DNA of 60,578 nucleotides, counting the filler, from Convolutriloba macropyga (taxonomy: Eukaryota), in the NCBI RefSeq assembly GCF_964194025.1. It is 3 parts of 3 records of this genome, joined end to end, with 100 filler letters (N's around TTAATTAATTAA, not from the genome) between each part and the next. Parts side by side here need not be neighbours in the genome. Positions count along the whole stretch, not along the records: positions 1 to 24,181 come from NC_134474.1; 2 more parts are not named here. One strand, 5' to 3'. Position numbers and translations under genes: made by a program. The notes under the pieces were generated by a model. It worked only from the letters and a program-made list of their open reading frames with translations. It was not told where the DNA came from and made no database searches. This document shows, piece by piece, positions 8,165 through 8,820 of this stretch. The first letter of the stretch is position 1. Every line of letters starts with the position of its first letter.

Positions 8165-8820
8165 ATGTCTAAGCTTGTTGTCGTTGGTGCGTCAAATATT
8201 GAAAAAGATTATGAGTTGTGCTGGTGTCAAAATGTGGACCATAAATGTATAAAGGACATTCATTTGCCTGAGTGGGTGGAAGAAGTCAAATTTGTGAGCG
8301 TGCCTGGTGCTCGTGTAAATCATGAAACAAAAAGCCTTCAGTAATTTTTTCTTTGTTTTAATATGGAAAATGTTTAATTTTTGACATGTCTGTTTTTGTT
8401 TTGTATTTGTTTAGTAATCTTCTAATGGAGGCAATTACGCACGCACCAAAAGCTATTTTAATATATTGTGATATTGTTGAAAATTCGCTGGAGTACCATA
8501 ACGGTCATGAAGCGCTGGATGGAAAAAGTTGCGCAAAGGTAATAGAGGCGCAAGCGAAAAAGTATACTGACATCAATATCGTGGTGATGCACGCGCAGTG
8601 GAGAAAAAGTCTCAAGTTGGCTCAAAATGAAGAAATTGGTTATTTTAATAACATTATCCATAGAACAAGTTGCATTATTGACGTTAAAATTCGAACCAGC
8701 GCTAAATTCACACGAATTATTGACGAGGAGACGGGACGGAAGGAGTCAAACCTGAATGTTCACCACAGGCGTCAAACAGTGTGCTTCAATGTTGGTATTC
8801 GTATTAGGAAGGCAAAGTGA
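8165..8820 (+). CDS. Spliced SGNH/GDSL-hydrolase-like protein (exons 8165-8340 and 8415-8820)
   Basis: Removing a 74-nt GTAATT...TTTAG phase-2 intron (8341-8414) gives one open frame: MSKLVVVGASN...FVSVPGARV...ILIYCDIVENSL...NLNVHH, matching the spacing of SGNH blocks I, II, III and V. Confidence 0.65.

Follow-up and report, generated by a model that had tools for sequence, protein, structure and literature searches.

The window, that is, the whole 60,578-nucleotide stretch of Convolutriloba macropyga DNA that was analysed, contains an esterase-like gene in two exons, located between a block of Polinton-type genes and the end of the element that carries them. The features of this part of the window are as follows.

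855..1688, plus strand: A32-type packaging ATPase (Pfam Pox_A32, E 1.4e-8; cluster of 26)
2772..3871, plus strand: integrase-like region in three frames, broken in the window copy
4593..5954, plus strand: likely major capsid protein, intact 453-aa ORF (cluster of 26)
8165..8340, plus strand: exon 1, with block I (G-A-S10-N), a Cys/His-rich loop and block II (V-P-G48-A-R-V); aligns to residues 1–57 of the relative P0036
8341..8414, plus strand: predicted spliceosomal intron, 74 nt, phase 2, GT-AG, T-rich
8415..8820, plus strand: exon 2, with candidate block III (Asn82) and block V (His175, Leu at the usual Asp position)
8851..8970, no strand assigned: right terminal segment, likely a terminal inverted repeat, with a CT-repeat-like motif at 8968–8970

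The element appears to be Polinton-type, as indicated by the A32 ATPase match, the motif at its end and motifs of capsid, integrase and protease genes. ORF 4593..5954, which we take from its motifs to be the capsid gene, has no library match; three members of its cluster, from Convolutriloba macropyga, are named F54H12.2-like, and the literature on F54H12 gave no confirmation of the capsid label. The region 2772..3871, with no Pfam match, is presumably the integrase, and the protease, with no library matches, is likewise assumed from its motifs. In the window copy the capsid ORF and the esterase-like gene are open, and the integrase-like, protease-like and membrane-protein genes are in pieces.

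Several other regions of the element have recognizable features. The membrane-protein region (48–800, plus strand) contains a strong hydrophobic segment (KD19 2.5), an apparent repeated unit and, in the window copy, stops. ORF 7142–7828 (plus strand), without family matches, encodes a PPxY motif (PPPSY); such motifs bind ligases with WW domains during the entry of adenoviruses and the budding of viruses. A second candidate spliceosomal intron of 123 nt (7301–7423, plus strand; GTGAG...TTTTACAG), in frame and stop-free, is located in the gene upstream of the esterase-like one. An amphipathic ORF (4012–4332, plus strand) resembles by eye the adintovirus ‘Cupiennin’ gene (PMC11071296), and is followed by a very Arg/Lys-rich ORF (4209–4583, plus strand) for a likely core protein.

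The element end and linkage of the gene across copies

The esterase-like gene is part of a multicopy Polinton-type element, as follows from the contrast in sequencing depth, the element end at 8968–8970 and the contigs shared with the capsid and ATPase genes. Summed over contigs, the depth of positions 1–9174 exceeded that of 10426–12500, the stretch with the host RNF213-like gene, by a factor of 7 to about 50 in three runs, a ratio not to be read as copy number. Ten contigs diverge from the window after 8968 and five after 8970 (agreement about 0.5), continuing into many different flanking sequences; loose ends are seen before 8851, 8886 and 8898, and depth peaks at 8878–8985. The stop codon at 8820 lies 150 bp inside the element end, upstream of the point at which contigs diverge, so that the placement of the gene inside the element, as proposed in the initial annotation, is supported. 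The window covers this one end only, the element running on leftward past the window start.

Linkage to the capsid or ATPase gene extends to other copies. When contigs are identified by their length, 14 of the 15 listed for the closest exon-2 cluster, or 13 of 14 once the contig of the window is set aside, reappear among the listed capsid or ATPase copies, each of these lists comprising 15 of 26 members. By the same measure, contigs with exon 1 reappear in 7 of 12 cases and those with more diverged exon-2 copies in 1 of 13. Some copies carry frameshifts or deletions within the esterase-like gene.

Internal deletion forms of the element, for example from 7418 to 8500, show up both in joints and in proteins (P0006 and P0031). 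The depth over the terminal 100 bp (8878–8985) is several times that over the gene, which suggests many short derivatives or sister families with a common end. Outside the element, a short repeat is present at about 9.6–10.0 kb, and a host RNF213-like AAA/E3 gene (10285–12045, plus strand; E 3e-97) at single-copy depth is located about 1.3 kb to the right of the element end.

Exon structure and the intronless relative P0036

Exon 1 begins with an ATG at 8165 and comprises 176 nt (58 codons plus 2 nt), the donor GT being located at 8341, the acceptor AG at 8413–8414 and the stop that closes exon 2 at 8820. The predicted intron has 20% GC and 60% T, and both exons have 40% GC. Joined at these sites, the exons give a reading frame of 193 codons plus a stop, free of internal stops; unspliced, exon 1 meets a stop codon one codon past the donor. 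A scan of donors in 8250–8344 and acceptors in 8370–8479 yielded nine stop-free, phase-consistent GT-AG pairs, of which only 8341/8414 gives 193 aa; it is also one of the two pairs that use the most pyrimidine-rich acceptor. By these sequence features the two exons constitute a real gene, with a predicted product of 193 aa.

Out of 1.84 billion representative proteins, a 191-position profile built from both exons matched 10. The sole full-domain distant match was P0036 (193 aa, E 4e-7), the representative of a 22-member cluster, of which 11 other members were aligned and are 96–98% identical. P0036 is encoded by a single ORF, shares 43% identity with exon 1 and 23% with exon 2, and has exactly one residue at the junction; profile–profile comparison (97.6%, E 3e-12) placed a single gap, at the intron. 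Because P0036 aligns collinearly across both exons, these together encode a single domain, to which the 74 nt do not belong. Removal of the 74 nt by host splicing is the simplest reading and a likely one. The initial annotation had proposed a phase-consistent 74-nt intron and a protein of about 193 aa, and both find homology-based support in the open frame and in the intronless, collinear P0036; the ORF start that it placed at 8386 has to be abandoned, since that Met falls within the intron.

The copies were surveyed for the same arrangement. Read-through from exon 1 into exon 2 occurs in none of the 15 exon-1 proteins examined, and in the closest exon-2 cluster, which has 21 members and no annotated spliced model among them, 13 of the 15 listed are full-length. 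None of the five joints listed in sequencing runs skips the 74 nt; run X1, guessed to be RNA, contains 0.04 of the words and one unspliced piece across the donor, and was used neither way. In a subfamily represented by P0011 and P0032 the intron region is in frame and forms a 25-residue insertion relative to P0036. The single-sequence fold prediction of P0032 had a pLDDT of 33.9.

Synonymous changes account for nine of 21 polymorphic sites in the 28 exon rows contained in the best 40 of 95 variant rows, a weak excess over the 24.5% expected (p 0.05); the differences that set the window copy apart from nearly all others show none (two of seven synonymous). The signal of purifying selection on the gene is thus weak. 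It is consistent with a captured passenger of no use, in which the 74 nt would be an inactivating insertion copied along and not spliced, as are the other broken genes of the window copy and the damage seen in some copies. Such a passenger is very improbable in view of the GT-AG ends, pyrimidine tract and exact phase and extent of the insert, of both exons being open in most listed copies, and of a second multicopy family that keeps the same residues.

That second family is the one of P0036. Since none of the 13 contigs with members of this family recurs in the capsid and ATPase lists, P0036 probably sits in another element or assembly. Two of the remaining matches of the representative search, P0038 and P0039, contain fragments of the esterase-like family, and two others, P0037 and P0040, are repetitive and were taken as noise. 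Word-index searches (proteins of 31–354 aa) recovered close copies and P0036 only. No relatives were found in the viral contigs or GTDB genomes searched. JGI contigs yielded none in one search and five loci in another, three of which were translated; two look like Obg-type GTPases and the third is an unrelated protein. One gene fragment of the family is annotated in the acoel Convolutriloba macropyga. All records with matches are apparently from acoels, and the reach of the family may be narrow.

The intron also bears on how such elements are expressed and annotated. An intron fixed across copies implies nuclear host transcription and splicing. Vertebrate Mavericks, which end in (AG)3//(CT)3 and whose intact forms are intronless according to the accessible part of PMC8097293, a part that makes no mention of lipases, resemble the present element in an apparent AG/CT-type end, in the ATPase gene and, probably, in genes for capsid, integrase and protease; the element of the window differs from them in carrying at least one predicted spliceosomal intron. 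A fixed intron in animal Polinton copies would be a departure from this intronless state. In dinoflagellates, Polinton-like elements carry introners (PMC11957031, available text). Intron-containing genes of such elements escape ORF-based annotation.

Active-site motifs and predicted fold

All four SGNH-like motifs named in the initial annotation are present in the spliced product. The window family and the P0036 family, about 25–43% identical, have the Ser, Gly, Asn and His in common. Block I reads G8-A9-S10 in both, residue 9 being Ala instead of Asp, Asn or Gln, and its Ser is found in all 15 exon-1 proteins and in 14 P0036-family matches. Block II is PGAR in both families and occurs in 14 of 15 exon-1 proteins. 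Block III comprises a conserved Asn after strand 3 (22/24 and 15/15 pattern matches), and reads D-I-x-x-N-S, not GxND, with the Asn about two residues late in a region of pLDDT below 50. The DIVENS form reported initially is that of the window; the typical form is DIVGNS, found in 17 of the 24 stored proteins that match the pattern. In block V, His175 aligns with His173 of P0036 (kept in 22 of 23 matches), and the catalytic Asp is absent, with Leu at His-3 in both families.

According to the accessible text of PMC10792757, a main-chain oxygen serves as the acid in five of 30 tabulated SGNH structures; the missing Asp is therefore no bar to SGNH membership, and activity is still plausible here. 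The loop rich in Cys and His that connects blocks I and II might bind zinc. The C-terminal half, encoded by exon 2, is basic (pI 9.25) and lacks a hydrophobic segment, and no transmembrane or signal segment was found in the spliced protein.

The fold was modelled for P0036, not for the spliced window protein, from a 16-row alignment. In the model (pLDDT 54.8, pTM 0.61; 74 residues below 50, among them the Ser10, Gly47 and Asn83 loops), strands and helices alternate over residues 1–193, in keeping with the flavodoxin-like SGNH architecture of three layers and five parallel strands: strand 2–7 is followed by a short helix starting at Ser10, strand 38–43 precedes Gly47, strand 73–81 precedes Asn83, and His173 is located just before the last helix (176–192). 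A search of a library of 48,161 chains, three of which reach Z 8, placed at the top 2vpt, a family-3 carbohydrate esterase (Z 8.2, rmsd 3.8, 145 residues aligned), followed by Ca_00311 (Z 8.1), the PAF acetylhydrolase 1bwp (8.0) and the lipase/acylhydrolase 1yzf (8.0). A second structural search was headed by the arylesterase 3dci (Z 8.2) and thioesterase I, 1jrl (8.1). The best SGNH rows overall aligned 138–154 residues at an rmsd of 3.5–3.8. Titles naming an esterase, lipase, hydrolase or acyltransferase accounted for 23 of the 50 fold rows listed, most of them presumably SGNH enzymes. Entries 1YZF and 4H08, PAF-AH and thioesterase I are SGNH enzymes according to Table 1 of PMC10792757.

Comparison by sequence with Pfam, PHROGs and PDB gave no match to an SGNH family. 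The Foldseek check of the P0036 model was mixed: it gave no match at E 0.001 and its best rows were flavodoxin-like reductases, and in the viral structure library several SGNH-named rows lead, at E 0.005–0.07. Because non-SGNH flavodoxin-like chains come within 1 Z unit of the SGNH rows and Foldseek gave nothing at E 0.001, the fold search is weak when taken alone. The SGNH-like fold proposed in the initial annotation is nevertheless the one that ranks first with the P0036 model, though tied with other flavodoxin-like folds. Taken together, the fold search and the four motifs, in the right order and spacing, indicate that the product very probably adopts an SGNH fold. The rival assignment to another flavodoxin-like alpha/beta domain, in which the motifs would be coincidental, draws on the closeness in Z of response regulators, binding proteins and small GTPases and on the reductases in the Foldseek rows; it has little probability, as the motifs are right in order, spacing and position relative to the secondary structure, and SGNH entries top both structural lists.

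An SGNH fold could also be retained without catalysis, in a pseudo-enzyme with RNA, lipid or protein as its binding partner, like the OSK domain of Oskar. The Asp-less block V, the non-standard blocks I and III, the basic surface and the lack of profile matches to SGNH families would be compatible with this. OSK, however, has lost the Ser, Asn and His (PMC10792757, accessible part), whereas here all four residues are common to two distant families, and a pseudo-enzyme is accordingly rather improbable.

Possible role, known relatives and origin

The gene may encode an accessory, spliced, SGNH-fold esterase that acts on membrane lipids and aids the passage of particles or DNA across membranes, a reading to which we assign a probability of about 0.45. 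The gene would be transcribed by host Pol II and its exons joined by the host spliceosome to give the 193-aa protein. In the active site Ser10 would be the nucleophile and His175 the base, with a main-chain carbonyl in place of the side-chain Asp, and Gly48 and Asn82 would form the oxyanion hole. The basic C-terminal half could bind acidic lipids by charge, as ZfL2-1 does. Hydrolysis of acyl esters of membrane lipids would then promote particle entry or exit, or membrane remodelling, in a late or virion role comparable to the one played in related viruses by PLA2 and lipase genes. Precedents are the ZfL2-1 esterase, an active enzyme that associates with acidic liposomes (PMC3905857), and PLA2X and other membrane-active adintovirus genes, for which an entry or exit role has been proposed (PMC8502044, PMC11071296).

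The same spliced SGNH enzyme could instead deacylate or deacetylate host proteins, glycans or signalling lipids and so blunt host defence, with no part in membrane passage. The product is small, soluble and without a membrane anchor; deacetylases and PAF acetylhydrolase are among its closest fold rows; and the gene is located at the element end, away from the capsid gene. Element ends often house accessory genes. This function is nevertheless somewhat unlikely: the ZfL2-1 esterase binds lipids and is without histone deacetylase activity (PMC3905857, available text), and the recurring hydrolase cargo of the related virus group consists of lipases (10.64898/2026.10.13.758929, available part).

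The membrane-lipid esterase would have counterparts in several mobile elements and viruses. Membrane-active accessory genes comprise PLA2X, GasderminX, Cupiennin, the MV13 lipase of Mavirus and a ‘Macc’ class, and related viruses have PLA2, lipase-3 and patatin-like genes (PMC8502044, PMC3671162, PMC11071296, accessible parts). Like these adintovirus and virophage genes, the present accessory gene of a Polinton-type element is small, lies on the ATPase/capsid strand and has a product predicted to act on lipids; unlike them, it is of the SGNH type, not PLA2, gasdermin, alpha/beta-hydrolase lipase 3 or patatin, contains an intron, occupies a terminal position and has no visible protein-X tail. 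As far as the available texts go, virophages carry lipases (PMC3671162), and lipases of unstated class are fairly common across the related virus group (10.64898/2026.10.13.758929). SGNH/GDSL cargo is described, in the portions available, for texim in fish Helitrons (PMC4021074), ORF3 of rotifer LTR elements and Terminons (PMC5408684, PMC6431247) and a casposon (PMC4779613); these too are transposon-mobilised SGNH genes with a proposed membrane role, from which the present gene differs in its Polinton host and non-canonical blocks.

In the openly accessible papers and supplements searched, no animal Polinton was found to be described as carrying an SGNH gene. The supplement of PMC8502044 gave no term matches, and the text and supplement on nematode Polintons (PMC10748475) contain no esterase or lipase term. 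Six of the 62 term matches in the supplement of PMC11071296 were listed, from the accessible part, five of them inside sequences and one a short ORF labelled carboxylesterase. The gene is a previously unannotated accessory gene, and its SGNH type is new for animal Polintons within the searched literature. To that extent the description of it as an undescribed accessory esterase/lipase stands; lipases of related viruses and SGNH cargo of transposons were already known.

Capture of the gene from a LINE, also suggested initially, has one six-residue motif in its favour. Block II reads VPGARV here and FPGARV in the ORF1 esterase of ZfL2-1 (PDB 4C1B), with 5 of 6 residues in common, and is closest to 4C1B among the 30 structures tabulated in the available part of PMC10792757. 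This hints at kinship with animal retrotransposon esterases. No sequence match to 4C1B was obtained at E 10, and it is absent from the fold rows listed. The CR1/L2/RTEX ORF1 esterases have, as is predicted for the present protein, an SGNH fold in an animal mobile element and a basic surface (PMC3905857, accessible text). They differ in carrying a coiled coil and in belonging to an ORF1 upstream of reverse transcriptase, whereas the present gene stands alone in a DNA element, flanked by the Polinton-type genes on one side and the element end on the other rather than part of a LINE ORF1, and has no coiled coil. The block spacing is similar, 38/34/93 here against 22/30/87 in ZfL2-1. About 16 extra Cys/His-rich residues are present here between blocks I and II, GASN replaces GDSI, GxND is lacking and block V is without Asp.

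The ORF that had been pointed out at 32.1–32.8 kb was rejected as the donor because its similarity to the family is undetectable (0.0 bits, 0.4% probability). This ORF (32135–32779, minus strand) is a separate SGNH-like sequence with, by eye, canonical-looking ADS, GGN and DKIH motifs, one internal stop and no library matches, upstream of a decayed LINE (29.2–31.9 kb).

A more specific scenario, which we regard as unlikely in its entirety, is that acoel Polintons took an SGNH esterase from the retrotransposon pool, that this became Asp-less with a Cys/His lid and gained an intron, and that it is used as a membrane-breaching virion enzyme in place of PLA2 or gasdermin. If true, it would represent a further convergent entry solution in animal Polintons, switched on by host splicing. 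For membrane crossing by animal Polintons, a small soluble candidate enzyme together with an expressible intronless relative makes one route testable.

Two other regions of the window were noted. The stretch 19204–19953 (minus strand), inside a decayed LTR retrotransposon, has no Pfam match and is presumably macrodomain-like, judged from its motifs. The stretch 47600–60578 contains a 6.5-kb tandem duplication in which arrays of 530-bp units carry a 45-bp palindrome.
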